Positions 11,964-62,557 of a stretch of DNA of 64,000 bases are shown here, one piece after another. The notes below the pieces were generated by a model. The model made no database searches and was not told the origin of the DNA. It saw nothing but the letters and a program-made list of their open reading frames with translations. Numbering within the stretch: position 1 is the stretch's first letter; each line of letters begins with the position of its first letter. The position numbers and the translations under genes were made by a program. This DNA is from Escherichia phage vB_ESM-pEJ01. The stretch lies in the sequence record OP114734.1; one strand, 5' to 3'.

Positions 11964-11991
11964 TTGACAATCTTATTTGGTAAGGTATAAT
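11964..11991 (+). promoter_or_regulatory. sigma70-like early promoter (TTGACA-N16-TATAAT) driving the inserted cassette
   Basis: -35 TTGACA 11964-11969, -10 TATAAT 11986-11991; leader begins ACACACAT as in the PeSL units at 52-60 kb. Confidence 0.6.
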
Positions 11992-12278: not shown

Positions 12279-12598
12279 ATATTAAATTGCATTACACAAT
12301 GAATAAAGCTAAGTTCCCAATGCAAAAGCATTACTATGGTCTACGTGCACAAGATCCTAAACTCTATGGTACTCATTGGTTTTGTAAACATGATAACCAA
12401 TGGCACACATACGAAGAAATGCACGAGATGATGAAACAGGGTATTGAATTTAGTTATTCTAATTATGACCATCGTATAACTTGCATTCGAAAATTGAAAC
12501 GATGGATTCGTAAGAATCCGCAATTTAAAAACTTTGTGTTCTTTATGTCTCATACTTATCTGGGGCATAGCGTTACCGTAACAGCAAAGGTTAAATAA
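12266..12598 (+). CDS. hypothetical protein (110 aa)
   Basis: overlaps upstream ORF by 13 nt and downstream ATG by TAATG, suggesting translational coupling. Confidence 0.5.
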   Translation: MARVNIKLHYTMNKAKFPMQKHYYGLRAQDPKLYGTHWFCKHDNQWHTYEEMHEMMKQGIEFSYSNYDHRITCIRKLKRWIRKNPQFKNFVFFMSHTYLGHSVTVTAKVK

Positions 12599-13437
12599 TG
12601 GCACGACTTTCTAAACAAGAACAAAAATTACACGACCGAGCAATGGAGTTGATTAATTCAGATCGTCCATTGACATTTGAAGAAAAAGAATTTTGCTATA
12701 ATAACTATCATGGCGATGGGCTAGGTGGTTCCGGTGCATTCTTTACCCCAGAATGGCTTGCCTGGGATTTTACCATTGACGCACACTGCACAGGAAAAGT
12801 ATTAGATCTTTGTGCTGGGATCGGTCGCTTATCTTTTTGTATGTTACATCGTTGTAAGCCAGAAAAGATCGTATGCGTCGAACTCAATCCAGAATTTGCG
12901 CGGATTGGCAAGAGACTATTACCGGAGGCAGAATGGATCACCAGCGATGTATTCGAATTTGAGTCAAACGAAAAATTCGATGTGGTGATCAGCAATCCAC
13001 CTTTCGGGAAAATCAATACAACCAACACAAAGGATGTATTTGAGTACACTGGCGGCGAATTTGAATTTAAGGTTATGACATTAGGCCAGAAGTTTGCCGA
13101 TGTTGGCTATTTTATTGTTCCTGTGGGTTCCGCTGGTTTTGCTTATTCCGGCAGACCTTATTATGACGGGACCATGAAGTCTAATAAATATATAAAATGG
13201 AGCAAACAAACTGGTTTGGTGACTTATGCCGGATGTGGGATTGATACATCAATCTATCGCGATGAATGGCACAGTACCAACGTTTTAACAGAAGTGGTTG
13301 AGGTTCGGTATTACGAGAAAGAAGCCGTAGAAGCGCCTAAATCACGCCCTAACGAACAAATAGAAGAAAGTAAGGAGATTACCTTACCGAAACAGGAAAG
13401 CGAGTCTTGGACGCTCTCAGATTTGTTTGACATTTAA
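12598..13437 (+). CDS. putative N6-adenine DNA methyltransferase, gamma-class motif order
   Basis: FFTP motif, then AdoMet motif I VLDLCAGIGRL, then catalytic NPPF about 60 aa later. Confidence 0.7.
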   Translation: MARLSKQEQKLHDRAMELINSDRPLTFEEKEFCYNNYHGDGLGGSGAFFTPEWLAWDFTIDAHCTGKVLDLCAGIGRLSFCMLHRCKPEKIVCVELNPEFARIGKRLLPEAEWITSDVFEFESNEKFDVVISNPPFGKINTTNTKDVFEYTGGEFEFKVMTLGQKFADVGYFIVPVGSAGFAYSGRPYYDGTMKSNKYIKWSKQTGLVTYAGCGIDTSIYRDEWHSTNVLTEVVEVRYYEKEAVEAPKSRPNEQIEESKEITLPKQESESWTLSDLFDI

Positions 13438-47096: not shown

Positions 47097-48154
47097 TGAA
47101 AATTAGTGTTATCAATGATGCCGTTGATAGCTTTAAAGCGGGGGTTAAAACCTCCGCTGGTTTTACCTCAAAAAATAAAGGGAAAACATTAACCGCTCAA
47201 TTCCCCGCTGAACGTGCTAGCGGTAATGATGCTAGCGGTTATTATATCAACGACTTATATAATAATGGTCTGTTATTCACTGCATACGATTATACATCTC
47301 GTACTACTGGTTCGTTGCGTGATTTCAGGAAAAAGAAAAATGTTGCTAGCGGTTTTGGTGGTAGCGTTAATATCGCTGGTTTTGATTTAAATTTGGGTGG
47401 GAGAAATGCTGCATTTGACCGAGAGGCAATTGCTAATATTCTTCTTCCTCGTAGTCAATCTGACGTTGACGCTGCTAGCCATAAGTTTAATGATGTTGGT
47501 GAATCTGTTATTTCTCGCGGTGGTGGTACTTTAGGCGGTGCTCTTTCTAATATGGCATCTACTGCCGTTTTTGGTGGTATCGAAAGTATTACTGGTGGAT
47601 ACCTTGCCGATCACGGTGAACAGATTTATAATACTGCGCGAAGCATGTATGCTGGTGCTGACGCACGAACTAAAAACTACGTATGGCATCTAACCCCACG
47701 TAGTATTGAAGACCTTCGCAATATTCTGATCATATACGAAACGTTTTTAGAGTTGTCTTATGGGTCTAGTGGTATTTCCAGCACCGCAAAAGAATTAAAA
47801 GCGGAAGTTGATGCGTGGTATAAAAATACACTATTGAGAAAATCCACCCCAGAGGAAGCGAAGAGAAATGATACTCTGTTTGAAGGGATCACCGATTTTC
47901 TATCAAACGCAATTACTGTATCTAACCCGACAATATGGATGATCTCTAACTTCGGCAAGCGTACATCGTTTGAAGGGCGTAGCGATGCATTTGGTCCCGC
48001 TCAGATCTCAAGTGTACGTCTGGACAAGTCGCCTGATGGTAAGTTTAATGGCCTTGCTATTTCTCCTAACTTGCCCAGTACATTTGTTCTGGAAGTATCA
48101 TTTAGAGAGATCTTGACACTTTCCCGTGGTACTATATTTGGGAGTGTGGTATAA
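47096..48154 (+). CDS. 48: baseplate-tail tube junction protein gp48
   Basis: 352 aa; synteny 29-48-54. Confidence 0.8.
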   Translation: MKISVINDAVDSFKAGVKTSAGFTSKNKGKTLTAQFPAERASGNDASGYYINDLYNNGLLFTAYDYTSRTTGSLRDFRKKKNVASGFGGSVNIAGFDLNLGGRNAAFDREAIANILLPRSQSDVDAASHKFNDVGESVISRGGGTLGGALSNMASTAVFGGIESITGGYLADHGEQIYNTARSMYAGADARTKNYVWHLTPRSIEDLRNILIIYETFLELSYGSSGISSTAKELKAEVDAWYKNTLLRKSTPEEAKRNDTLFEGITDFLSNAITVSNPTIWMISNFGKRTSFEGRSDAFGPAQISSVRLDKSPDGKFNGLAISPNLPSTFVLEVSFREILTLSRGTIFGSVV

Positions 48155-50502: not shown

Positions 50503-52554
50503 TTACATTTTAAATTTATCTGGCATTGCGTCTACAGATACCAGATCAGCGATAAGCTGACGTAGAGTTGCCTTATCTGCTTTCTTACGTTCGGTTTTAG
50601 CTTCGCTAATGAAGCTGGAGAAAGACAGGTCAGAAGCAGGTTTAATAACACCTTCACGGATGAATGCATCACCGTCCGCGATCATCTCGCCAGATTCTTG
50701 TAATGCTGCCAGTTCATTTTTGTTCATAATATGTGCCTCAATGTAATAAGTTTCTTGTGAATCAGTCGATGCCGTGGCACTAGTTACCGTATCAAAGGAT
50801 AACACAACACCGCGAGGAAGTAAAATCTCGCATTCTTTGTAAGCAAATGCTTTGTTACCTACTGGCAATACAGGGATGTTTTCCGCGCCAGCAATGGAGA
50901 AAGCAACATTAGCGCCACCTTCACCGCGAGAGCCAGCCATAGAATCAACACCAGCAACGGCACTAGCCACGTTTGCATTCCAGCCGCCAAAAATGTTAGG
51001 TGCAAGGGAAGTGCTCACATAGTTTTTAAAGTAAAACGCTTTTTGCTTACGTGCAGTTTCCCACATTTGCGACCGGAAGTCCATACCACGATACAGAATA
51101 GTACCCGGATCAAGTTTAACGCCATAGTTGGAGAAGGCATTATCCAGTGCATCGCACATCTTGACCAATTCTTCTGGATCTGCGATGCCTTCAAACTCTT
51201 CCAGCTTACGGTCGGTTAGGAAGTTGTTCATATTGATGTATGCTGCATCGGCATATTCGCTCAACACAAAACCTTCCGCGCCTGGCAGATCAAGATCAAT
51301 ATCTGCCATCATTTCACCCATGTTGCTAGCAATTGCTTCAAACATACCGGACGCAACATTACGTAGGGCATCGGTTTTAATCTGGGTGATATGACTACGC
51401 AGCATTTCAGCTTTTACATCTGCTGGCATAGACTGGTCTACTCGATCCATTGCCAGGGCGGTGATCTTGTTTTCGAATACTTCCTCGCTCATGATTTCTT
51501 TTAAGCGTTTGACCGAGGCTGCGATAACTTCCGCAGACAACGGATCATATTGATCCTGAACTTTTACCAGTTCGCTTACTGCGTATTTTGCATCGGCTTC
51601 GCTTTCAAAAATAGTACGCATGAAACCATAGCGAGTGATAATATCACTTGTCCAGTCATTCAGAGAACGGGCGGTTGAACGTTCTAAGGCTTGACGGTCA
51701 ATCAGAGTATTAAACTGTTTCTTAGGTTCGGCTTCGGTGATATCTTCTTCCGGTTTAAGATTAATTTTTTCTGGATGATTCACATAGTCGCTGTTATAGG
51801 TCGCTTGAGTTTTCAGCATTTCTTCTTTAGTCAAACGAGATTTAGCCGCTACGCGTTGTTCCGCTTCCGCGTTTCGTTCTTCTTCTGACACAAGACTAGC
51901 CGCATACGCTTCATCTTTAGTCAGAGATTCACCGGTAGCCTTAGATACCCAGCGATCACCTAAATCACTTTCTACTTTAGTGAACAGGGAATCATCAAGT
52001 TTAATCCCTTTAATCTTATCAATCGCCATACCGCGACGCTTGACAACAACTAAAGCGATCTTTTTGCTGGTCATTACTTCCTGCTGGAATACTTCAAACT
52101 TCGGTGTACGACGCACCAAACGCTCTATAACGCGCTTAACCAGTTCGGTCTTACCTTTCATGCGGGATACGTTAAAACGGAACATAACAGCGTCTAATTG
52201 CGCTTTACGGGCTGTTTCCATAACCACATCAAAAGCACTTGCCATAACTGCAATCGGGTTATCACCTAGACCATTTTTAAGCTGTACAATACGACCGCTT
52301 TTGTTCATTTCGCACAGTACAACATGTGCGGTCTTGTCACCCATACGAATGATTTTAGGTGTTTTGTTGGTGAAGTTACAAAGACGGACAATCACATCTT
52401 TATCGCGTGTCTGTACTGCAAAAAGCTGTTTAGGATTCTGCTTAGGCTTTAAGCACTGTACCGGGGCAATACTACCAAAGTTTTCTTCCTCTTCCGTCAA
52501 CAGCCATTTCTCGAAAGATTCAATCATTAGATCGTCGATTTCTAAGTTAAACAT
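50503..52554 (-). CDS. alt: ADP-ribosyltransferase Alt
   Basis: 683 aa (T4 Alt 682 aa); C-terminal ART domain with ILYRG, YVSTS, ECEILLPRG; position between gene 54 and gene 30. Confidence 0.8.
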   Translation of the reverse strand: MFNLEIDDLMIESFEKWLLTEEEENFGSIAPVQCLKPKQNPKQLFAVQTRDKDVIVRLCNFTNKTPKIIRMGDKTAHVVLCEMNKSGRIVQLKNGLGDNPIAVMASAFDVVMETARKAQLDAVMFRFNVSRMKGKTELVKRVIERLVRRTPKFEVFQQEVMTSKKIALVVVKRRGMAIDKIKGIKLDDSLFTKVESDLGDRWVSKATGESLTKDEAYAASLVSEEERNAEAEQRVAAKSRLTKEEMLKTQATYNSDYVNHPEKINLKPEEDITEAEPKKQFNTLIDRQALERSTARSLNDWTSDIITRYGFMRTIFESEADAKYAVSELVKVQDQYDPLSAEVIAASVKRLKEIMSEEVFENKITALAMDRVDQSMPADVKAEMLRSHITQIKTDALRNVASGMFEAIASNMGEMMADIDLDLPGAEGFVLSEYADAAYINMNNFLTDRKLEEFEGIADPEELVKMCDALDNAFSNYGVKLDPGTILYRGMDFRSQMWETARKQKAFYFKNYVSTSLAPNIFGGWNANVASAVAGVDSMAGSRGEGGANVAFSIAGAENIPVLPVGNKAFAYKECEILLPRGVVLSFDTVTSATASTDSQETYYIEAHIMNKNELAALQESGEMIADGDAFIREGVIKPASDLSFSSFISEAKTERKKADKATLRQLIADLVSVDAMPDKFKM

Positions 52555-52597
52555 TTTATATCCTCTAGTTGATAACCTATAAACCTATATTTATGAA

Positions 52598-52620
52598 AAG
52601 GGGGCTTAACGCCCCCCTTT
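52598..52620 (-). terminator. hairpin terminator upstream of alt
   Basis: - strand hairpin GGGGGGCGUUAAGCCCCC followed by UUUU. Confidence 0.6.
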
Positions 52621-52621
52621 A

Positions 52622-52834
52622 TTATAATGCACCATCGAGCAATTGCTCTAATGTGTATCCTGAATAGTCTTTTTCAATCAGGATATATTTTCCTACTCGT
52701 TTAATACAACCGCGCATTTCAACGTATTCTGCGTAGTTGATGGTGCGAGTTGTTCCATCTTCTAGCAAAGCAGTACCGATTTCGTTAATGCGGTCATAAG
52801 TTACGTCGGTAATGATGATTTCGATGTTAGCCAT
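52622..52834 (-). CDS. hypothetical protein (70 aa)
   Basis: start moved to ATG at 52834 (RBS AAGGAG); N-terminus MANIE identical to the ORF at 54721. Confidence 0.55.
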   Translation of the reverse strand: MANIEIIITDVTYDRINEIGTALLEDGTTRTINYAEYVEMRGCIKRVGKYILIEKDYSGYTLEQLLDGAL

Positions 52835-52870
52835 TTGATACTCCTTAGTAGTTCGTTTCGGTATGTGTGC

Positions 52871-52900
52871 ATTATAGGGGATCACCGATCCCCCTGTCAA
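52871..52900 (-). promoter_or_regulatory. PeSL-like early promoter unit 1 (TTGACA-N18-TATAAT, palindromic spacer)
   Basis: - strand -35 at 52895-52900, -10 at 52871-52876; spacer GGGGATC...GATCCCC. Confidence 0.6.
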
Positions 52901-52907
52901 CAACTTT

Positions 52908-53426
52908 TTAGTTATTTTTTAATTGTTCATCTTGCAATAATGCAATCACATGCTGGCGATGCTCTTCTGATTGAGGCACACCAAAAAAGTTTGTTTTGTA
53001 GAAATACTCTAATCGGTCTTCTCGTGTGCTCTCTTCCATCATGATCGCGGGTAGTCCGAGATTTCGGAAACGTCGCTTTTCTGCTGGCGTAAAATCACTG
53101 TAATACAACATAGAATCATCATTACCAGCAATGCTAAACTCATCCTTCATGAAAGAGAATATTGCGTTTAAACGCTGTTTACCGTCCACGATTTCGATCT
53201 CATAGCGAGAGCCATCATCAATCTTAGCCATTGCGATAGAGCCTACCGGAAAATCATTAATCATGTTTTCGATAAACATACGTTTGTTTTCGGTGTCCCA
53301 TACCAAAGGACGCTGATAATCTGGGTTCATGTTGATATAGCCATCTTCTAACCATGCCTCATAAACAGAGATGACAAAGTTTTTAGTATTGGTATAGTAA
53401 CGGCGTTTAGGCGTTAAACGGTTCAT
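52908..53426 (-). CDS. DUF262 / ParB-like nuclease-domain protein
   Basis: motifs NPDYQRPLVWD and VDGKQRLNA (DGQQR-type); start moved to ATG at 53426 (RBS AGGAG), 1 nt after the upstream stop. Confidence 0.65.
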   Translation of the reverse strand: MNRLTPKRRYYTNTKNFVISVYEAWLEDGYINMNPDYQRPLVWDTENKRMFIENMINDFPVGSIAMAKIDDGSRYEIEIVDGKQRLNAIFSFMKDEFSIAGNDDSMLYYSDFTPAEKRRFRNLGLPAIMMEESTREDRLEYFYKTNFFGVPQSEEHRQHVIALLQDEQLKNN

Positions 53427-53427
53427 G

Positions 53428-53760
53428 TTATAGTCTCCTGAATGGATCATCACGTAAATCAATATCTTTTAAGAACTCATCCCATGAATGGCGGATATTA
53501 TTCTTAATTCTCCAGATAAGCGAAGGGATTGAACGCTCTCCCATCTGGAAGTATGGATCATATGATCCGTATGCCCAATATGCTACTACAATTCCGCAAT
53601 CAGTGCAATAGTATTCTATCTCGCTTGCTGGCGACCAAAGTCCATCAATATGATCACGGATCTTGCTTTCAATGTTATGACTATGGCAATCAGGGCAACG
53701 GATGCAATGACCTTGTTTGTCATAATTTGACGTTAGCGAATACTTAAACAATCTCATCAT
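53428..53760 (-). CDS. Zn-ribbon protein (110 aa)
   Basis: CIRCPDC...H and CTDCG cysteine pairs; start overlaps upstream stop by 4 nt. Confidence 0.6.
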   Translation of the reverse strand: MMRLFKYSLTSNYDKQGHCIRCPDCHSHNIESKIRDHIDGLWSPASEIEYYCTDCGIVVAYWAYGSYDPYFQMGERSIPSLIWRIKNNIRHSWDEFLKDIDLRDDPFRRL

Positions 53761-54473
53761 AGATCCTTATTGGCTTCAAATACTGCCTTTGCGAATCCTC
53801 GCGGGGTAAGTGACCTGATAGTCTTTGTTCTGGTTCCTTTCCCGCCTAGCTTAGAATGCTGTTTACTGTACCCTTTATTAATCGGCAACGGTTTCTTTTC
53901 TGGCATTATAAAGCCTTGTCCGGTCCATAAGCAAGTCTTTTTCGGGTACATATCACGGGCGGCAATATACTCAGGAAACGTAGGATGTATATCATCTTCC
54001 GGCAAATAACCGCCATATTCCCACGGGTGGAACATGTAATCAGGCTTACGCCACATGCTAGAGATAACGCTTACAGGATTCTCTATCATGTAGGGAACTC
54101 CTAGCCATTCACCCAAATAAGCGGTTATTTTAGCTGCCCGTACATCATGAACTTGAATCAACGGTCCTTGTTCTAGTTTCTTTCGTTCAAAGTGCGCAGC
54201 GCCACTAACAGCTAAATTGGTGCACGGTGGGAATGCAAAGATAATATCCGGTTTCCCCCATTCAAGGTCCATTGCTCTTTCCAGCCAGTTCAAATCAATC
54301 CAGGTGTTTACATAGGTAATGTTTTGATGTTCAAATCGGGTATTATATTTTTTGTATGTACCGTGGTCGCCATCGTCAGCATTAAAGCAGATCACCTTAT
54401 GACCTGCTTTAGCCCATTCTAACCCCATTATCCCCGATCCGTCAAAGTTGCAGAATATTAATTTTTGTTTCAC
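53757..54473 (-). CDS. compact DNA C5-cytosine methyltransferase-like protein (no large target-recognition domain)
   Basis: motif I FCNFDGSGIMG, motif IV FAFPPCTNLAVSGA (Pro-Cys), motif VI MIENPVS, motif IX-like IRSLTPRGFAKA in canonical order; GTG start overlapping upstream TGA. Confidence 0.65.
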   Translation of the reverse strand: MKQKLIFCNFDGSGIMGLEWAKAGHKVICFNADDGDHGTYKKYNTRFEHQNITYVNTWIDLNWLERAMDLEWGKPDIIFAFPPCTNLAVSGAAHFERKKLEQGPLIQVHDVRAAKITAYLGEWLGVPYMIENPVSVISSMWRKPDYMFHPWEYGGYLPEDDIHPTFPEYIAARDMYPKKTCLWTGQGFIMPEKKPLPINKGYSKQHSKLGGKGTRTKTIRSLTPRGFAKAVFEANKDL

Positions 54474-54721
54474 GCTGCCCCCATTGGTTTGATAGTAACA
54501 GAATCTAAAAGACCTTTGTTAGCCAGTTCGCGGCAAGTTTTCAGATCCGCAACTTCCCAGCCAGCCGCAATCAGGTTATCGATTAGGCTGTTAGCAACTT
54601 CTTCGCTCATGAAAGAGCACTGTTTGCCGATGGTGTAGCGTACACGCTGTAATTTCAGTTTACGGAAGCCTTTAACGTTCAGGTCTTTAGCGATTTTCTT
54701 TGCGGTTTCGATGTTAGCCAT
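54470..54721 (-). CDS. hypothetical protein (83 aa), first gene of the four-gene operon
   Basis: ATG with RBS GGAGAA directly downstream of PeSL unit 2; N-terminus MANIE. Confidence 0.55.
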   Translation of the reverse strand: MANIETAKKIAKDLNVKGFRKLKLQRVRYTIGKQCSFMSEEVANSLIDNLIAAGWEVADLKTCRELANKGLLDSVTIKPMGAA

Positions 54722-54761
54722 TGTTTGATTCTCCTAAGTGGTATCTCGTCTTGATGGTTGT

Positions 54762-54790
54762 ATTGTAGGGGAGTTATCCTCCCCTGTCAA
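54762..54790 (-). promoter_or_regulatory. PeSL-like early promoter unit 2 (TTGACA-N17-TACAAT)
   Basis: palindromic spacer GGGGAGGATAACTCCCC. Confidence 0.6.
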
Positions 54791-54804
54791 CACTTTTTAT
54801 AAAA

Positions 54805-54972
54805 TTATTTGTTAATTTCTGGTGCGTTGCTAGGATAGTAACCTTCTTTAACTCCGAGATATTTCGCAACCATCCCTACAATCTTCTGTGCTACTACAAT
54901 GTCAAATTTCAGATAATCTTCGCCGTGGGTTTCAATGATATATGCTTCACATGCTGCTTTAGTCTCGAACAT
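54805..54972 (-). CDS. small protein (55 aa), paralog of 58083-58250
   Basis: manually found ORF MFETKAACEAYIIETHGEDYLKFDIVVAQKIVGMVAKYLGVKEGYYPSNAPEINK; RBS GGAGAA. Confidence 0.55.
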   Translation of the reverse strand: MFETKAACEAYIIETHGEDYLKFDIVVAQKIVGMVAKYLGVKEGYYPSNAPEINK

Positions 54973-55005
54973 TTTGATTCTCCTATTTCGTTTCGTTATG
55001 TGTGT

Positions 55006-55034
55006 ATTATAGGGGATCTCCAGATCCCCGTCAA
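55006..55034 (-). promoter_or_regulatory. PeSL-like early promoter unit 3 (TTGACG-N17-TATAAT)
   Basis: palindromic spacer GGGGATCTGGAGATCCC with two GATC. Confidence 0.6.
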
Positions 55035-55048
55035 CAACTTTTTTAAAA

Positions 55049-55330
55049 TTATTCGTGATTAGTTTCGATGTTGTGCATTTTGCACCAGTTCAGCCAATCA
55101 CCCAGATCCTGATAGTTAATGCTTTTATCTGCTGCCATCGTTTTTGTCTTGATACCCATATGTGCGTTATGAGTAAGCATTTTTACAGTGAACTCAATTT
55201 TATCACCTTTAGCTTTAACATCAACCAGTTTGGTCCACTGGCTACCAGCGCCGCGAATGTTCATACCAACGATGTTTCCGATGTATGCTTCTTTGTTTTT
55301 CAGGATTTCGGTTGCTTTGATGAATTTCAT
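55049..55330 (-). CDS. hypothetical protein (93 aa)
   Basis: ATG with RBS GGAGAA downstream of PeSL unit 4. Confidence 0.55.
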   Translation of the reverse strand: MKFIKATEILKNKEAYIGNIVGMNIRGAGSQWTKLVDVKAKGDKIEFTVKMLTHNAHMGIKTKTMAADKSINYQDLGDWLNWCKMHNIETNHE

Positions 55331-55363
55331 TTTTGATTCTCCAGTTCGTTTCGGTATGTGTGT

Positions 55364-55392
55364 ATTATGCTATGTTCTTACTTTGGTGTCAA
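55364..55392 (-). promoter_or_regulatory. PeSL-like early promoter unit 4 (TTGACA-N17-CATAAT)
   Basis: no spacer palindrome. Confidence 0.5.
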
Positions 55393-55400
55393 CAACTTTT

Positions 55401-55670
55401 TTAGATATTTTCAGAAATAAATTTTAAAACTTGACGTAAATGTTTCTCATCTTTGATAGTCGCCGGAAGTTCTTCTTTTACTTCCTGTGCAAGATAGATA
55501 TTTCCGTTCCAAGTGAAAGATCCGTCTTCGTTTACGCGATAGCTGAACATCCACTCGCAATCATTTTCGATTTCATATACACACAGAAGGGTGTAATCGT
55601 TAAAGCTATTGATTTCAAGGTCGAAGCCGTGACGTTTTGCAAAGTTGGTAGTGGTTTTAGTCAGCGCCAT
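55401..55670 (-). CDS. hypothetical protein (89 aa)
   Basis: ATG with RBS GGAGAA downstream of PeSL unit 5. Confidence 0.55.
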   Translation of the reverse strand: MALTKTTTNFAKRHGFDLEINSFNDYTLLCVYEIENDCEWMFSYRVNEDGSFTWNGNIYLAQEVKEELPATIKDEKHLRQVLKFISENI

Positions 55671-55710
55671 TGTTTGATTCTCCTAAGTGGTATCTCGTTT
55701 CGATGGGTGT

Positions 55711-55739
55711 ATTATGCTATAGGCGTGATCTGGTGTCAA
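55711..55739 (-). promoter_or_regulatory. PeSL-like early promoter unit 5 (TTGACA-N17-CATAAT)
   Basis: leader nearly identical to unit 6. Confidence 0.5.
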
Positions 55740-55763
55740 CAACTTTTTTAAAATTTTATGCAA

Positions 55764-55788
55764 TAAAAAGCCGACACTAAGGTCGGCT
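55764..55788 (-). terminator. intrinsic terminator after family member A
   Basis: perfect 7-bp stem AGCCGAC/GTCGGCT, U-run on - strand. Confidence 0.65.
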
Positions 55789-55795
55789 AATAAAA

Positions 55796-56104
55796 TCATT
55801 TAGACAAATAATCATTCAGTGCAATCCGGTCGGCATGTTCCGGCGTTACGTCAATCGCAATCAGTTTAACGCGTGCTTTCTTGCGACCTGGGTTTTCTCG
55901 TAACCAGTGCTCATGACCGTGAACATTTTTATACTGCGATGCTTCTTCGAAGGTACGGATCGGACCTGGGTAATCAGCGTAAAGGATCTCTAGGTCATCG
56001 GTGATGTAAAAATATACGTTGTAATTGCTGTTCTCTAGTTTAAGCAGAGACATTCGGAACATTGGGAGATTTTCGCGGGTAAATTCAAAGATATTATCTT
56101 TCAT
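55796..56104 (-). CDS. H-x-H-W family small protein A (102 aa)
   Basis: start moved to ATG at 56104 (RBS GAGGA); C-terminal HGHEHWLRENPGRKKARVKLIAIDVTPEHADRI. Confidence 0.55.
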   Translation of the reverse strand: MKDNIFEFTRENLPMFRMSLLKLENSNYNVYFYITDDLEILYADYPGPIRTFEEASQYKNVHGHEHWLRENPGRKKARVKLIAIDVTPEHADRIALNDYLSK

Positions 56105-56130
56105 AGTATTATCCTCAATAGTTGGATGAA

Positions 56131-56150
56131 ACGGGGGCTTAACGCCCCGT
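56131..56150 (-). other. hairpin of the GGGGC-TTAAC-GCCCC family
   Basis: same stem-loop as at 52601-52620 and, in the gene-sense orientation, 20002-20018. Confidence 0.4.
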
Positions 56151-56153
56151 ATA

Positions 56154-56441
56154 TTAAAACAGCCCTTCCTGTACACCGTAGTAGAGTTCATCGCTGATAA
56201 TTTCATTAATGCGACGGTGTGCATATTCCTGATTTGCGAAGTTGTCAGCAAGTTCTACTTTAGTTTCGCCGTCATGAGTCCATTTAGTGATAACTTTACC
56301 ATCTGCAAATTTGAAGTTGAACTCTTTAGCTACCGCATCGCGTACCAGACGTGCAAACTTGTTGTTGCGGATTGCATTGTCGGTTTCGTGTGCAGCGTGA
56401 GCGAATTTGTTAACTTTCAGAGTGATAGTAATGTATGCCAT
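56154..56441 (-). CDS. hypothetical protein (95 aa), paralog of 59727-60038
   Basis: RLVRDAVAKEFNFK versus REVRKALAKEFNTK in 59727-60038; RBS GGAGAA. Confidence 0.55.
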   Translation of the reverse strand: MAYITITLKVNKFAHAAHETDNAIRNNKFARLVRDAVAKEFNFKFADGKVITKWTHDGETKVELADNFANQEYAHRRINEIISDELYYGVQEGLF

Positions 56442-56487
56442 AATTTGATTCTCCTAGTTAGAAAGTGTATCTCGTTTCGATGGGTGT

Positions 56488-56516
56488 ATTATGCTATACA
56501 CCCGATCTTATGTCAA
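56488..56516 (-). promoter_or_regulatory. PeSL-like early promoter unit 6 (TTGACA-N17-CATAAT)
   Basis: leader nearly identical to unit 5. Confidence 0.5.
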
Positions 56517-56522
56517 CACTTT

Positions 56523-56801
56523 TTATAAAATAATTTTTTGATATTTTTCTATGATGTTCGTGTAAGTCACATCAACCGCTATCACCGTTGCTTCGAATCC
56601 ACCGTTTAGCCAATGGCTATGGTCATGATCGTGAAAGAAACCAAGACCAGTACGAAGACCTTCTTTATATTCGGCGCGTACATTTAGATCATCATCGATA
56701 AACAGATAAAACCATGAATTTTTACTAGGATTGATGATACAACCTTTCAGATTAGGGAGAATATCACGACTAAGAATAAACTTATCACCTACTTTGAACA
56801 T
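56523..56801 (-). CDS. H-x-H-W family small protein B (92 aa)
   Basis: start moved to ATG at 56801 (RBS GAGGAA); C-terminal HDHDHSHWLNGGFEATVIAVDV. Confidence 0.55.
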   Translation of the reverse strand: MFKVGDKFILSRDILPNLKGCIINPSKNSWFYLFIDDDLNVRAEYKEGLRTGLGFFHDHDHSHWLNGGFEATVIAVDVTYTNIIEKYQKIIL

Positions 56802-56815
56802 AATATTTTCCTCAC

Positions 56816-57124
56816 TTATAAAGTTTGACCGTTGTTTTTCGCGTAATGCTGAATGCGTGCTTGATCTGCTTCCGCTGGTGATAGATTCCATGCAACCACT
56901 ACAACTTCTGACGCATCGTCATCCGTTTCTGATACCCAATGATTGTGATTCATACAGTTATTTGCTATCGAGTGAGCAAATGATTTCATCACTGGAGACG
57001 TATAATCATAGTAACGGATTTTCAGATTTTCATCAACATACAAGTAGATCGTATAAGGTTTATATTCAGTAACCAGTAACAGACAGTTACGCAATTCTGG
57101 GAAAATCTTTTTAGTTAATTTCAT
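56816..57124 (-). CDS. H-x-H-W family small protein C (102 aa)
   Basis: start moved to ATG at 57124 (RBS GAGGA); C-terminal HNHWVSETDDDASEVVVVAWNLSPAEADQ. Confidence 0.55.
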   Translation of the reverse strand: MKLTKKIFPELRNCLLLVTEYKPYTIYLYVDENLKIRYYDYTSPVMKSFAHSIANNCMNHNHWVSETDDDASEVVVVAWNLSPAEADQARIQHYAKNNGQTL

Positions 57125-57125
57125 T

Positions 57126-57344
57126 TTATAATCCTCGGTCTCGGCTATAGTACACGGTACGCCATACAATTTCATGTTTCGTGTCGCTCCAGCACACGAT
57201 CTCATTTACTCTTAAATCTTTGTTATCAACAAAAGATGAACATTGTGACGCTTCTTTCATCATTTTATCTGCTGTTTTCTCATCAAATACAGCACAGATT
57301 TCTTTATACACTCGATAATCTTTGAATTGACTCTGAATACCCAT
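57126..57344 (-). CDS. hypothetical protein (72 aa), tandem paralog of 57304-57561
   Basis: SQFKDYRVYKEI...KMMKEASQC versus SKFKEYKAYQQI...KMMEDASKC. Confidence 0.5.
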   Translation of the reverse strand: MGIQSQFKDYRVYKEICAVFDEKTADKMMKEASQCSSFVDNKDLRVNEIVCWSDTKHEIVWRTVYYSRDRGL

Positions 57345-57561
57345 AATTAACACCATTCCAACCAATTGTTTTTGAGAAAACGTCTATCCACTGTTGAGTG
57401 TAGCATGTTTCTTTCCATGATACAATACGAGTGGAATAATGGTTTTTGTTTCCAGAAAAGGACGGGCATTTTGATGCATCTTCCATCATCTTTTCGGCGA
57501 ACTCTGGTGCGTATACTCGCAGGATCTGTTGATATGCTTTGTATTCTTTAAATTTGCTCAT
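57304..57561 (-). CDS. hypothetical protein (about 85 aa), tandem paralog of 57126-57344
   Basis: overlaps the downstream paralog by about 40 nt; start ambiguous (57561 or 57567). Confidence 0.5.
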   Translation of the reverse strand: MSKFKEYKAYQQILRVYAPEFAEKMMEDASKCPSFSGNKNHYSTRIVSWKETCYTQQWIDVFSKTIGWNGVNYGYSESIQRLSSV

Positions 57562-57826
57562 AATCATTCACTACCTTATCAGCTTCTTTTGTTGTTTTTA
57601 CATCAACTGCGATAACTCGTAAAGGTTCGTCATGGTTCCACCAGTGGTCATGAATATCAGCTTGTGATTTATCACCAAAGGAATCACGAATATCATTTTT
57701 ACATTTATAGCTAATGTGACCTTCATAGTCAACATAAAGGTAATTATCGAAAATCGGCGTTTTTAAGATCATACCGAAAAATCTTTCTTTGTGTGTCTTA
57801 TCCAGCGTTACAGTAATTCGCATCAT
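57548..57826 (-). CDS. H-x-H-W family small protein D (92 aa)
   Basis: RBS AAGAGGAA; C-terminal IHDHWWNHDEPLRVIAVDVKTTKEADKV. Confidence 0.55.
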   Translation of the reverse strand: MMRITVTLDKTHKERFFGMILKTPIFDNYLYVDYEGHISYKCKNDIRDSFGDKSQADIHDHWWNHDEPLRVIAVDVKTTKEADKVVNDYEQI

Positions 57827-57838
57827 AATATATTCCTC

Positions 57839-58018
57839 TTAGAAAGGGATGGTCATTTCTTGAGCTTGTACATTCTCGTTAGGATTAAACTTCATCCAAC
57901 CGATATTGTCTACCAGCATATGTACATTTTTATCATATCCTACGTGAGTAGTCAACACTAAATGTGCTTTACCTTCAACGATGATTTCCATGTACTTCTG
58001 AACTTCGATAGCTTTCAT
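57839..58018 (-). CDS. hypothetical small protein (59 aa)
   Basis: manually found ORF MKAIEVQKYMEII...; RBS GGAGAA downstream of PeSL unit 7. Confidence 0.45.
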   Translation of the reverse strand: MKAIEVQKYMEIIVEGKAHLVLTTHVGYDKNVHMLVDNIGWMKFNPNENVQAQEMTIPF

Positions 58019-58050
58019 TTTGATTCTCCGTTTGTTGTCTTGATGGGAGT

Positions 58051-58079
58051 ATCTTACTACTCCCTTTAATCATTGTCAA
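58051..58079 (-). promoter_or_regulatory. PeSL-like early promoter unit 7 (TTGACA-N17-TAAGAT)
   Basis: palindrome GGGAGTA...TACTCCC overlaps the -10. Confidence 0.5.
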
Positions 58080-58082
58080 CTA

Positions 58083-58250
58083 TTATTTGTTAATTTCCGG
58101 TGCGTTGCTCGGATAGTAACCTTCTTTAACACCTAGATATTTTGCAACCATTCCGGTGATCTTCTGTGCTACTACGATATCGAATTTCAGGTAGTCTTCA
58201 CCGTGGTTTGCTACAATGTATGCTTCGCATTCTGCTTTAGTCTGGAACAT
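58083..58250 (-). CDS. small protein (55 aa), paralog of 54805-54972
   Basis: start moved to ATG at 58250; MFQTKAECEAYIVANHGEDYLKFDIVVAQKITGMVAKYLGVKEGYYPSNAPEINK. Confidence 0.55.
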   Translation of the reverse strand: MFQTKAECEAYIVANHGEDYLKFDIVVAQKITGMVAKYLGVKEGYYPSNAPEINK

Positions 58251-58284
58251 TTTTGATTCTCCTATATCTCGTTGGTATGTGTGC

Positions 58285-58313
58285 ATTATAGGGGATCGGT
58301 GATCCCCTGTCAA
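58285..58313 (-). promoter_or_regulatory. PeSL-like early promoter unit 8 (TTGACA-N17-TATAAT)
   Basis: spacer GGGGATCACCGATCCCC on the - strand, same palindrome arms as unit 1 with inverted centre. Confidence 0.6.
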
Positions 58314-58320
58314 CAACTTT

Positions 58321-58623
58321 TTATTCTTCATCTTTATCTTGATATGCGTACTTCATAAATTTGTCTGCTACTTTGTCCGCGTTTTCAGGTTCTACGTCTG
58401 ACGCTAGGACAACAGCTAGTTCGGTTTTGTCGTTTCCATCATACCAATGATTATGAGTGTCGTTTTCTTCGATATAAAACGAATCGTTTGGAGTTGTGCG
58501 ACAATATACGTCTAAATTCCCATCGATATAAAAGATCCAATCCGAATACAAAATGATTGTTTTAGCAAGATTTTTATTGTCTCTTACAAAAGGTTCCGCG
58601 ACAAATAGCTTAGTTTGTTCCAT
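58321..58623 (-). CDS. H-x-H-W family small protein E (100 aa)
   Basis: start moved to ATG at 58623 (RBS GAGGAA); C-terminal HNHWYDGNDKTELAVVLASDVEPENADKV. Confidence 0.55.
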   Translation of the reverse strand: MEQTKLFVAEPFVRDNKNLAKTIILYSDWIFYIDGNLDVYCRTTPNDSFYIEENDTHNHWYDGNDKTELAVVLASDVEPENADKVADKFMKYAYQDKDEE

Positions 58624-58639
58624 AATATTTTCCTCAAAA

Positions 58640-58828
58640 TTATACAGCTTCGTAAACTTCCCAATGTTCAGCACCAACACGCTTAACGAAAAGGTTTTCT
58701 TTGATGTTATTCATAAACGTCTGGATGGATTTAATGCGGTTGGAAGGTTTCCAGTCTTCGTTGGCATTGCGGTGATACATAATATTACCAGTTCGCTTAT
58801 ATTCAGCAACCATTTTAAGACCACACAT
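58640..58828 (-). CDS. hypothetical protein (62 aa)
   Basis: ATG with RBS GAGGA; preceded by hairpin 58848-58866. Confidence 0.5.
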   Translation of the reverse strand: MCGLKMVAEYKRTGNIMYHRNANEDWKPSNRIKSIQTFMNNIKENLFVKRVGAEHWEVYEAV

Positions 58829-59688: not shown

Positions 59689-59718
59689 AGTATAGGGGAG
59701 TTTAACCTCCCCTGTCAA
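59689..59718 (-). promoter_or_regulatory. PeSL-like early promoter unit 10 (TTGACA-N18-TATACT)
   Basis: palindromic spacer GGGGAGGTTAAACTCCCC. Confidence 0.55.
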
Positions 59719-60083: not shown

Positions 60084-60112
60084 AGTATAGGGGATATGTG
60101 ATCCCCTGTCAA
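60084..60112 (-). promoter_or_regulatory. PeSL-like early promoter unit 11 (TTGACA-N17-TATACT)
   Basis: palindromic spacer GGGGATCACATATCCCC. Confidence 0.55.
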
Positions 60113-60125
60113 CAACTTTTTTGAA

Positions 60126-60602
60126 TTATTTTTCTTGATGCTCGCGCTCGTACTTTTCGAAATAAAATTCTACTGGCTGGTCATGAATTGACAGCAAGCC
60201 AAAGCGTTTAGCCGCTCGCAATCCCATATTGCGCTGAATGTACTTCTGGAAGTTCTCGCGTATACACTTACGCCAGTATTCTAAGCCCATACAGCTTTTA
60301 TAAAGATTGCATTGCACACACGCCGGATTCATGTTATCAAGTATATCATGTTCCGGTTTATGCATTCCTACAACCTTATACTTCCACGATCCATCATCAT
60401 TACGGGCAATTCGTCCATTTTCATCATAGACTACCTTTGAGCGTCGCAATACTGGTTTGATGTGGTCTGCGTGCCAGCGATCCCCTAGTTCCTCGCCACA
60501 ATAGGCACAACGTCCACCGTATTTCATTTTCAGGATCTGGCGTTGCTCTTTCTTTGACAATTTTTTAGGTTTAGGGGCTTTCGCCCCTTCATTATCACAC
60601 AT
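60126..60602 (-). CDS. HNH endonuclease-family protein
   Basis: C-x2-C...H-A-D-H...C-x2-C (CAYCGEE, WHADHIKP, CVQCN); ATG overlaps the ligase stop by 8 nt. Confidence 0.7.
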   Translation of the reverse strand: MCDNEGAKAPKPKKLSKKEQRQILKMKYGGRCAYCGEELGDRWHADHIKPVLRRSKVVYDENGRIARNDDGSWKYKVVGMHKPEHDILDNMNPACVQCNLYKSCMGLEYWRKCIRENFQKYIQRNMGLRAAKRFGLLSIHDQPVEFYFEKYEREHQEK

Positions 60603-62091
60603 CGAATACCTCTTTTACTGTATTTGCAGTGGTCTTGTCGTAGCGAATACGTTTGATGATTGGGAGAAATAAAGAGAACTCCGGTTCATCTTCTTTACGT
60701 GATTTGCTGCGGATATACCCGTTGCATGTCATCTCAATGACTTTTCCGATCAGGTTATGCCGATCAGCCCATAACATTTCTCGGTCAAGTTCATTTCGAC
60801 GATCGAACGGAATTACACGTTCAATACCATCATCACATTTTTCGGTTGTAGTGTCGGTTAATCCCGATCCGGTGTTAGTCATCATTCGTCCGCACGCACT
60901 ACGGACAGTAAAACCGCCTACCTTATTAGGATCTTTACTATGCGGATATACATCAACAATTTCAGCGTCGAAGTCAATCACTTCTTTAAATTTAACCTGG
61001 TCTTTACTACGGCGATCTTCAAATACACCATGTAAATTTTTAAGGATAATACCTTCTAAGCCCATGTTTACATAGCGATGATATACTTCGCGAGCTTCAT
61101 CGATATTGTTAACTACAGTGTTTTCGATTATCTGAACACGAGGATCGTTAAGTTCTTCAACAATCTGTTTTAGTTCTTCGAATCGATCTTTATATTGCTT
61201 AGTTGCTTTCTCGTTTCCGTAATACACATCACGGTCGATAACATCCCAGACAGTATAAACAATACATTGGGCTTCTTCTTTTGGAATAGTTCCTTTAAGT
61301 GATTTGTTGAGGATACCATTTCCGGTCTGACGATCTGCAACAACGGATTCTTTCACTGCTTCCGCTACTGGCGTTAATGGCATTTCCTCTTCTTCAAATA
61401 TCCATGACAGAGTACCATCATAAACGCTTTCAACGAAGTTCTGCGCTGGTGTTTGCGAAAGGGTAGGCATATATACCAATTCGCCATCTAGAACAATTCC
61501 ACGGCCTCGTAGACGCTCTAAAACCGCAAACAAATCATCAAGTCCCTGATAGGTATTACCTGAACGGGTATAGATTGCTAATGTTTCCCCGTCAATATCA
61601 GCCATACCACGAGCGCCATCGCTTTTAAGTTGTGCATACGCCGGATACTTGATATTAGCAATAGTCTTATCAGAACATGACGATGCAAGGTGGCACGGCT
61701 GCTGGGGGATCAGTTTCTTCCATACCTTGTTTGCAGTGGTAGCGGAACAACCGCATTCCAGATCACGATTCAGGACCATCATTGCAACTTTAGCATCATC
61801 TTCTGACAAGCAAGTCAGAGTATCGGTAACTAGCTGTAATGCTGCGTTACCAGTTACTTGACGCGTGGCAAGTTTATTTTTAAAGACCTGTAATGCACCG
61901 GATAAAGACAATACAGACGAATAACGCGATGGTTTATCGTATTTCTTTACGCCAAACGTAACCTGTTTGCAATATGCCAGATAAAAGCATTCTTTCAGAG
62001 TTTCATTGCTTGCGGATTCTTTCAGGATCTTTTCTTTCAGCGATGTTTTGTCGGTCGCTGCAAGCTGGTTAATGATATTAAGAATTGACAT
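60595..62091 (-). CDS. 30: ATP-dependent DNA ligase gp30
   Basis: start moved to ATG at 62091 (RBS GAGGTG; track used GTG); adenylation motif KSDGAR, RDLECG and LASS motifs match T4 DNA ligase. Confidence 0.9.
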   Translation of the reverse strand: MSILNIINQLAATDKTSLKEKILKESASNETLKECFYLAYCKQVTFGVKKYDKPSRYSSVLSLSGALQVFKNKLATRQVTGNAALQLVTDTLTCLSEDDAKVAMMVLNRDLECGCSATTANKVWKKLIPQQPCHLASSCSDKTIANIKYPAYAQLKSDGARGMADIDGETLAIYTRSGNTYQGLDDLFAVLERLRGRGIVLDGELVYMPTLSQTPAQNFVESVYDGTLSWIFEEEEMPLTPVAEAVKESVVADRQTGNGILNKSLKGTIPKEEAQCIVYTVWDVIDRDVYYGNEKATKQYKDRFEELKQIVEELNDPRVQIIENTVVNNIDEAREVYHRYVNMGLEGIILKNLHGVFEDRRSKDQVKFKEVIDFDAEIVDVYPHSKDPNKVGGFTVRSACGRMMTNTGSGLTDTTTEKCDDGIERVIPFDRRNELDREMLWADRHNLIGKVIEMTCNGYIRSKSRKEDEPEFSLFLPIIKRIRYDKTTANTVKEVFDV

Positions 62092-62557
62092 TTTCACCTC
62101 GTTTTGTTAAACGTTCACGAATATCATTGAGGATACTACAAAATTCCGATTCAGTCAATATAGTCTTTAACGGATCAGTTCCACCTATGCTATGACGTAA
62201 TTTCTTATTTCCGGTAGCGAGTAATGCTTTACAAAATTCTGGGTTATTCCGTGCCATCGTAACAAATGCCAGATGTACCAGTCTGTAATAATGCTCACTC
62301 ATTCGATGAATCTGGCGACCCTGAAAATATAACAGGTGATTCTCAATCTTTTCAGTTCTTCCGGTTCTTTTTGCTTTGCCACCGTGCATCAAAAAGATTT
62401 CTCTTTGTCTCTGGGGGTTCTTAAATCTTAGCCCCTGTAAAAATCCTTCTGTGCTGTTAATATCGCAACCAAATAAACGGAATGGTCTTTTATTGAAATT
62501 ACTCAATTCACCCGATGGATAAGGTCCACCCGCATAGATATCAATTTCAGAAGTCAT
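62078..62557 (-). CDS. NADAR (YbiA-like, DUF1768) domain protein
   Basis: IYAGGPYPSGELSNF, STEGFLQGLRF and ALLATG parallel the E. coli YbiA motifs (FSNF, TSEHYFQAQKF, ALLLAT); stop overlaps the ligase start. Confidence 0.75.
   Translation of the reverse strand: MTSEIDIYAGGPYPSGELSNFNKRPFRLFGCDINSTEGFLQGLRFKNPQRQREIFLMHGGKAKRTGRTEKIENHLLYFQGRQIHRMSEHYYRLVHLAFVTMARNNPEFCKALLATGNKKLRHSIGGTDPLKTILTESEFCSILNDIRERLTKRGENVNS

Follow-up and report, generated by a model that had tools for sequence, protein, structure and literature searches.

The promoter units described here lie in a 64,000-nucleotide stretch of DNA from Escherichia phage vB_ESM-pEJ01 (sequence record OP114734.1; this whole stretch is called the window), and several of them carry a palindrome with one or two copies of GATC in the spacer between the -35 and -10 hexamers. 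We find that these units are promoter-early stem-loop (PeSL) cassettes of an RB49-like phage, with near-consensus sigma-70 early promoters, and thus are elements that were already known. The explanation that we consider best overall, with a probability of roughly 0.78, is that the units are PeSL cassettes, that their pairs of GATC sites are a by-product, and that the two loop sequences ACC and GGT result from loop inversion combined with exchange between cassettes. A first-pass annotation of this DNA had correctly pointed out promoters with palindromes in their spacers; the known PeSL identity, with its palindrome described as a terminator or attenuator, went unrecognized.

Arbiol et al. 2010 (PMC2839356) found approximately 50 PeSL cassettes in each of the phages RB49 and phi1. 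According to that study, the stem-loop mostly lies between the -35 and -10 elements or overlaps the -10, and is followed by a Shine-Dalgarno sequence and the start of an ORFan. The units of the window have the same arrangement. The hairpin occupies the spacer in units 1, 2, 3, 8, 10, and 11, lies over the -10 in units 6 and 7, and is absent from units 4 and 5. The map of open reading frames (ORFs) and the annotated relatives place a Shine-Dalgarno sequence and a small ORF downstream, and genes are gained or lost between relatives, with ORF192, ORF195/196, and ORF211 variably present. Moreover, the units belong to the same lineage as the cassettes of RB49 and phi1, and they occupy the same hyperplastic region between alt and DNA ligase (PMC2839356, PMC4122927). 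The cassettes are repeated intergenic modules with a length of approximately 100 base pairs, and the shared anatomy consists of an A-rich tract, TTGACA-N17-TATAAT, a G(n)-loop-C(n) stem, a Shine-Dalgarno sequence, and a small ORFan.

Judged by gene order, units 8 and 11 are orthologous to PeSL206/205 and PeSL211/210, respectively, the very cassettes tested in the published work. PeSL206/205, described as a very strong promoter, gave approximately 13,000 Miller units in DH5alpha. Expression of a downstream lacZ gene was lowered by the PeSL211/210 stem-loop as much as by rrnB T1, and this stem-loop was rated an efficient terminator (PMC2839356). We find that the stem of PeSL211/210 is of the GGGGATC type. 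Likewise, orthologous sites are annotated as promoters in the record of the related phage GEC-3S. Neighboring PeSLs were reported to recombine in such a way that the genes between them are deleted, inserted, or circularized, and a crossover within the loop of a stem-loop was described in RB49 (PMC2839356). The same cassette-to-cassette deletions are present in the window, and we see no difference in kind between the two systems. Neither PMC2839356 nor PMC4122927 mentions GATC, methylation, or loop inversion. What is added here to a described system is therefore detail: a stem family that contains GATC, and a dimorphism in the orientation of ACC/GGT.

By sequence comparison, the window is that of an RB49-like (Krischvirus, or "pseudo-T-even") T4-type coliphage, and its positions 52500-58700 share 94-98% identity with approximately 60 Krischvirus genomes, including FL20, Phi1, GEC-3S, and ECD7. 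The cassette region is bounded by alt (50503-52554) and the DNA ligase gene (60595-62097) and is dense with small minus-strand ORFs of unknown function. For comparisons, all cassettes between alt and ligase were collected from the window as well as from 21 relatives (22 genomes in total) and were grouped by their downstream gene. The loci of the relatives were taken from GenBank phage records; a locus search based on ORF194 gave few Krischvirus contigs. A scan of IMG/VR with the pattern TTGACAGGGG-N9-10-CCCCTA mainly returned chance matches in unrelated contigs, and the useful ones were ECD7 and one or two Krischvirus contigs.

The unit promoters are all read on the minus strand. At ten sites, 10-12 of the 12 hexamer positions match the sigma-70 consensus, with a spacing of 17-18 nucleotides. 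An AT-rich tract (AAAAAAGTTG or similar) adjoins the -35 on its upstream side in all units, and the cassette alignment reveals the leader GGAGAATCAA-ATG in every one of them. Ten cassettes of the window can be aligned over approximately 110 base pairs (bp), with a mean column identity of 67%. The units are as follows.

Unit 1, 52871-52900, minus strand: TTGACA (52895-52900), spacer GGGGGATCGGTGATCCCC of 18 nucleotides (52877-52894), and TATAAT (52871-52876); hairpin GGGGGATC-GGT-GATCCCC with GATC at 52880-83 and 52887-90; upstream of the ORF185 homologue (52622-52834).
Unit 2, 54762-54790, minus strand: spacer hairpin GGGGAGGATAACTCCCC without GATC; -10 sequence TACAAT.
Unit 3, 55006-55034, minus strand: TTGACG-GGGATCTGGAGATCCCC-TATAAT; hairpin GGGATC-TGGA-GATCCCC with GATC at 55015-18 and 55023-26; precedes the ORF191 homologue, and the loop is GGGA in 18 of 19 orthologues.
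Unit 4, 55364-55392, minus strand: spacer CCAAAGTAAGAACATAG and -10 sequence CATAAT; no hairpin or palindrome and no GATC.
Unit 5, 55711-55739, minus strand: spacer CCAGATCACGCCTATAG with one GATC at 55727-30; no hairpin.
Unit 6, 56488-56516, minus strand: spacer TAAGATCGGGTGTATAG with one GATC at 56504-07; hairpin GGGTGTAT/ATACACCC covering part of the -10 sequence CATAAT.
Unit 7, 58051-58079, minus strand: hairpin GGGAGTAG/(T)ACTCCC over the -10 sequence TAAGAT; no GATC.
Unit 8, 58285-58313, minus strand: TTGACA (58308-13), spacer GGGGATCACCGATCCCC of 17 nucleotides (58291-58307), and TATAAT (58285-90); hairpin GGGGATC-ACC-GATCCCC with GATC at 58294-97 and 58301-04; upstream of the ORF205 homologue.
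Unit 10, 59689-59718, minus strand: hairpin GGGGAGGTTAAACTCCCC without GATC; upstream of the ORF209 homologue.
Unit 11, 60084-60112, minus strand: spacer GGGGATCACATATCCCC; hairpin GGGGAT-CACAT-ATCCCC with one GATC at 60100-03 and TATC in place of GATC in the right arm.

The first-pass annotation had listed units with one or two spacer GATC sites, and this list is correct (two sites in units 1, 3, and 8; one in units 5, 6, and 11), except that unit 11, whose single site we confirm, lies outside the range 52871-58313 to which the set had been assigned. The spacers of units 1 and 8 had also been described as reverse complements of each other, which is exact apart from one extra G in unit 1 (18 versus 17 nucleotides).

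The history of unit 1 illustrates how the cassettes are rearranged. In 15 of the 21 related genomes, a TTGACA-TAACAGAGGGTGTATAT-CATAAT cassette precedes ORF185 and a GGGG(G)ATC-GGT-GATCCCC cassette precedes ORF186, a gene of 180 bp that lies between ORF185 and ORF187 in most relatives. ORF186 is absent from the window and from PHB13, phiS, JK32, and Sf20. At positions 52835-52930, the leader of ORF185 is joined directly to the cassette of ORF186, a fusion that these four relatives share. Judged from this junction, unit 1 is a chimeric PeSL created by a cassette-to-cassette deletion of ORF186, which matches the published model. Duplication has left traces as well. The ORF191 homologue (54805-54972, minus strand) and the ORF205 homologue (58083-58250, minus strand) each encode 55 amino acids and are 89% identical, and since both follow cassettes with GATC hairpins (units 3 and 8), gene and cassette were duplicated together.

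Predicted RNA folds, computed in the sense of transcription on 56-nucleotide pieces, place a hairpin exactly over the spacer in units 1, 2, 3, 8, 10, and 11. The predicted energies of these hairpins range from -11 to -19 kcal/mol, with z scores from -2.0 to -4.7, and the strongest is that of unit 2 (-19.4 kcal/mol, z = -4.7). For units 6 and 7, the predicted fold covers the -10 box, and units 4 and 5 have no fold (z = +0.6 for unit 4).

Comparison of orthologous cassettes indicates that pairing is retained when GATC is not. At the ORF209 locus, 11 of 21 genomes have a hairpin of the GGGGATC type, and the other 10 have GGGGAGGTTAAACTCCCC or a near variant of it, which contains no GATC. At the ORF190 locus, the GATC-free GGGGAGGATAACTCCCC type is found in 18 genomes and a GATC hairpin in 3, and the commonest allele at the ORF210 locus carries TATC in its right arm. 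GATC has also been lost through changes that preserve pairing as G·U, as in GGGGGTC-ACC-GATCCCC (RB49 and G2248), GGGGGGTC... (JK32), and GGGGTC-GGGA-GATCCCC (Phi1). Because stem pairing is kept, G·U pairs included, a role at the RNA level is indicated. Single sites are not conserved either: among 19 orthologues of unit 5, four lack the GATC (three read GAAC and one reads GACC), and among 22 of unit 6, three lack it (two read GGTC and one reads GATA). Furthermore, PeSL stems of other T4-like lineages follow a different consensus that is free of GATC (PMC4122927). From these alignments we see no support for selection on GATC, which looks dispensable, and it is the pairing that looks conserved.

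The loops of the GATC hairpins present a second pattern. Among 94 hairpins of the GGG(G)ATC type in the 22 genomes, the loops are GGGA (27), GGT (22), ACC (21), ACG (9), ATC (7), ACA (2), GGC (2), and GCC, TGT, AGT, and TGGA (1 each). Of the 67 three-nucleotide loops, 43 are either ACC or GGT; among loops of this length in hairpins whose arms both keep an intact GATC, the figure is 43 of 56. The ACC and GGT forms are one 17-bp duplex in opposite orientations, and both are found at each of five loci, upstream of ORF186, ORF191, ORF205, ORF209, and ORF210. At the ORF205 locus, which holds the orthologues of unit 8, the loop is ACC in 11 genomes, GGT in 5, GGGA in 3, and TGT in 1. There, AV108 and kvi (ACC) can be compared with RB49 and JSE (GGT), whose flanks are identical at 199-200 of 200 positions, and there are two distinct upstream haplotypes that each come with either orientation. 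For PeSL206/205, the cassettes of phi1 and RB49 differ by the loop flip. The chance that the loops of two hairpins are exact reverse complements is approximately 1/64 for the one pair of perfect-arm hairpins with three-nucleotide loops in the window.

Hairpin-loop inversion is the likeliest origin of the ACC and GGT forms, being the most economical. The first-pass annotation had suggested that the flipped center is what recombination or repair within a hairpin would leave. This fits the alternation of ACC and GGT at orthologous promoters on near-identical flanks; a short conversion tract would go unnoticed in flanks that all cassettes have in common, and a flip in place is inseparable from short-patch exchange between cassettes. 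Three-nucleotide loops other than ACC and GGT make up 13 of the 56 cases with perfect arms, which is near what neutral drift would give at this divergence, so there is no need to invoke selection on the loop. The dimorphism appears to be functionally neutral. We also looked for inverted counterparts of the asymmetric variants (the extra G and the left-arm A-to-G change) and found none. As candidates for further flips we considered the pairs GGC/GCC and TGT/ACA, and rejected them. A hand calculation gave P of approximately 0.23 for two matches among three plus three single-step derivatives, GGC and GCC differ by one central base, and both pairs need one or two point changes each.

A comparable phenomenon has been recorded in noncoding chloroplast DNA, where hairpin-associated "minute inversions" are well documented, according to the account given in PMC2903610, which cites Kelchner and Wendel 1996. 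As described there, such inversions also have short inverted-repeat arms and a loop whose exact reverse complement is carried by close relatives, and they are recurrent; their hairpins lie in intergenic or 3' regions and are thought to act in RNA stability. In contrast, the present case concerns a phage, with 7-bp arms, a 3-nucleotide loop, a location in a promoter spacer, and many exchangeable paralogous copies.

Taken in sequence, the proposed mechanism would run as follows. The promoter would fire early, using host RNA polymerase, and the palindrome would act in RNA that comes from the gene upstream, where its hairpin would cause termination or attenuation of read-through, by analogy with what has been reported for orthologous cassettes. 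The GGGGATC...GATCCCC stem would have been copied among cassettes by duplication and PeSL-PeSL recombination, with the GATC pairs as a by-product. Inversion of the loop could then have taken place in single-stranded DNA, through either template switching or intrastrand exchange, and short-patch exchange between cassettes, of the kind known for PeSLs, would spread the flipped loop.

Several observations count against this explanation. The 11 spacers hold 9 GATC sites in 156 possible positions, versus 0.94 expected at the window-wide rate, and at least one site is found in 6 of the 11 (shuffle P = 5e-5), which is an enrichment beyond base composition. In GEC-3S, 12 of approximately 39 early promoters carry GATC, with the first copy always starting at spacer position 3-5, and four of these 12 (record positions 48093, 59056, 119063, and 131830) have no spacer hairpin. 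The spacer hairpins resemble intrinsic terminators in being G+C-rich, in lying at the end of the upstream gene, and in the terminator activity reported for one such stem-loop, but they differ in that no U-tract follows the stem. Instead, the tail is UAUAAU, which is the -10 box, and a simple intrinsic-terminator scan calls none of the spacer hairpins, although it does call canonical terminators in this region. The terminator role therefore rests on one published reporter result (PMC2839356). Finally, ACC/GGT is the one loop seen unambiguously in both orientations; flipped forms of GGGA (27), ACG (9), and ATC (7) are never seen among the 94 hairpins, which argues against frequent or general flipping in place.

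The enrichment of GATC is reduced by several considerations. Because GATC is self-complementary, a copy in one arm of a perfect stem recurs in the other arm, and a pair represents a single event. The cassettes are paralogous and thus are not independent samples, which deflates the enrichment, and the GATC hairpins all belong to a single family of paralogous stems (GGGGATC...GATCCCC, or GGGATC with the -35 sequence TTGACG). GATC is also over-represented throughout the window, with 387 sites versus 260 expected from dinucleotide shuffles (1.49x), and it is the most over-represented palindromic tetramer there (1.66x the mononucleotide expectation); this general excess deflates the spacer enrichment further. 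As for GEC-3S, some of its GATC promoters share longer strings with hairpin alleles, such as the GATCACG common to CCAGATCACGCC and GGGGATCACGTATCCCC, and it is reasonable to attribute the fixed position of GATC to descent together with chimeric crossovers inside spacers, as reported for RB49. At the other end of the tetramer distribution, GGCC (0.25x), CTAG (0.46x), and AGCT (0.54x) are strongly depleted in the window. These palindromic tetramer biases may come from codon usage or restriction avoidance.

It had also been proposed that the promoters are methylation sensitive, given that GATC is the Dam site and that the phage carries an extra adenine methyltransferase. In this scheme, N6-methyladenine in the spacer would tune the strength or timing of early transcription, for instance by telling injected DNA, which is fully methylated, from newly replicated DNA, or might recruit a protein that binds hemimethylated GATC, such as SeqA. 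The premise is sound. The Dam protein of GEC-3S aligns with T4 Dam from end to end (PDB 1YFJ, E = 3e-64; Pfam MethyltransfD12), and the window encodes a further methyltransferase-fold protein (12598-13437, plus strand) with MTS, Eco57I, and N6_Mtase hits. The latter gene sits within the baseplate gene block and has its own sigma-70-type consensus promoter at 11964-11991. RB49 DNA contains ordinary cytosine (PMC4041780). These methyltransferases speak for the proposal, as do the spacer enrichment, the rank of GATC among palindromic tetramers, and the constant position of GATC in the 12 GEC-3S promoters, whose spacers are otherwise divergent.

The proposal nevertheless finds no comparative support. 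All spacer GATC sites fall at spacer positions 3-14, and none overlaps a -35 or -10 hexamer. In the Dam-regulated promoters known to us (IS10 pIN, dnaA, pap, agn43, and P1 cre), the GATC shares positions with a hexamer or with the binding site of a regulator, and it is conserved. The present units are like these Escherichia coli promoters in having GATC within the promoter region and in that both host and phage methylate GATC; they are unlike them in that the sites lie in the spacer, are not conserved, and can be replaced by GATC-free hairpins, such that the same locus exists in nature with or without GATC. As noted above, GATC is lost by changes compatible with G·U pairing. Single sites are as variable as their neighbors, with 0.5 minority alleles per column in single-site GATC columns versus 0.69 in other spacer columns. 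The paired sites are 7-8 bp apart, which is not a whole helical turn. Moreover, with a Dam enzyme encoded by the phage, the spacer sites are likely to be methylated constitutively. DH5alpha, the strain in which the orthologue of unit 8 was assayed, is dam+. Overall, we regard Dam-sensitive early promoters as unlikely.

Another possibility is that the palindrome is a duplex binding site for a dimeric recombination or regulatory protein that recognizes either orientation, so that both persist at similar levels. The opposite orientations of the same duplex in units 1 and 8 and the predominance of ACC and GGT among the loops agree with such a site. However, no candidate protein has come to light, several unrelated stems occupy the same position and replace one another at a single locus, and in other cassettes the stem lies over the -10 or elsewhere. 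The loop variants ATC, GGC, and TGT accumulate at a roughly neutral rate, and the conservation of pairing, including G·U, indicates RNA. We consider a protein-binding site improbable.

A broader version of the methylation idea holds that GATC at fixed spacer positions 3-7, close behind the -35 box, is selected in many Krischvirus early promoters and is read through Dam methylation. The mark may distinguish fully methylated parental DNA from replicated DNA and bring about early-promoter shut-off, or it may be an entry point for MutH or SeqA that makes the cassettes recombination hot spots; the hairpin family may then be just one carrier of the mark. We consider such selection quite unlikely.

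Least probable of all, and in our view very doubtful, is that the reverse-complementary loops arose by coincidence through point mutation from ACC to GCC to GGC to GGT, without inversion: each intermediate has been observed (GCC in SFHK24; GGC in Makalu003 and in one metagenomic contig) and they are one central transversion apart, but they are rare (3 of 94 hairpins) and on derived-looking haplotypes, the end forms ACC and GGT are each frequent and alternate between flanks that are nearly identical, and three substitutions that hit the exact reverse complement have a prior of approximately 1/27 to 1/64.

Other features of the region were observed in passing. Three co-directional minus-strand genes at 52908-54473 form one transcription unit. 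They encode a protein with a GmrSD_N/DUF262 domain (52908-53462; Pfam E = 4e-20), a small zinc-ribbon protein (53428-53760), and the ORF189 homologue (53757-54473, 238 amino acids), which is annotated as a DNA methyltransferase in relatives. A search of the ORF189 homologue against Pfam returned nothing significant, the top match being C-5 methylase at E = 0.087. The trio may be a DNA-modification or anti-defense module. At the margin of the cassette-rich region and adjoining the DNA ligase gene, the ORF212 homologue (60126-60602, minus strand) encodes a protein with an HNH endonuclease domain, and an extra ORF211 beside ORF212 is present in some relatives and not in others. The hairpin GGGGGCTTAACGCCCC occurs in two copies, at 52597-52620 and 56130-56152, each followed by a T-rich run on the minus strand. 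These hairpins are canonical-looking terminators that follow the homologues of ORF185 and ORF198.

The cassettes are an established system, to which the loop flip adds a small detail that is new. If it were true that the GATC sites matter, the phage Dam would be linked to early transcription or to modular shuffling; nothing here suggests so. In alignments of these promoters, a single event will look like three substitutions. The dimorphism of the loop offers a handy neutral marker for short-patch exchange or hairpin-mediated inversion in the recombination of T4-type phages.

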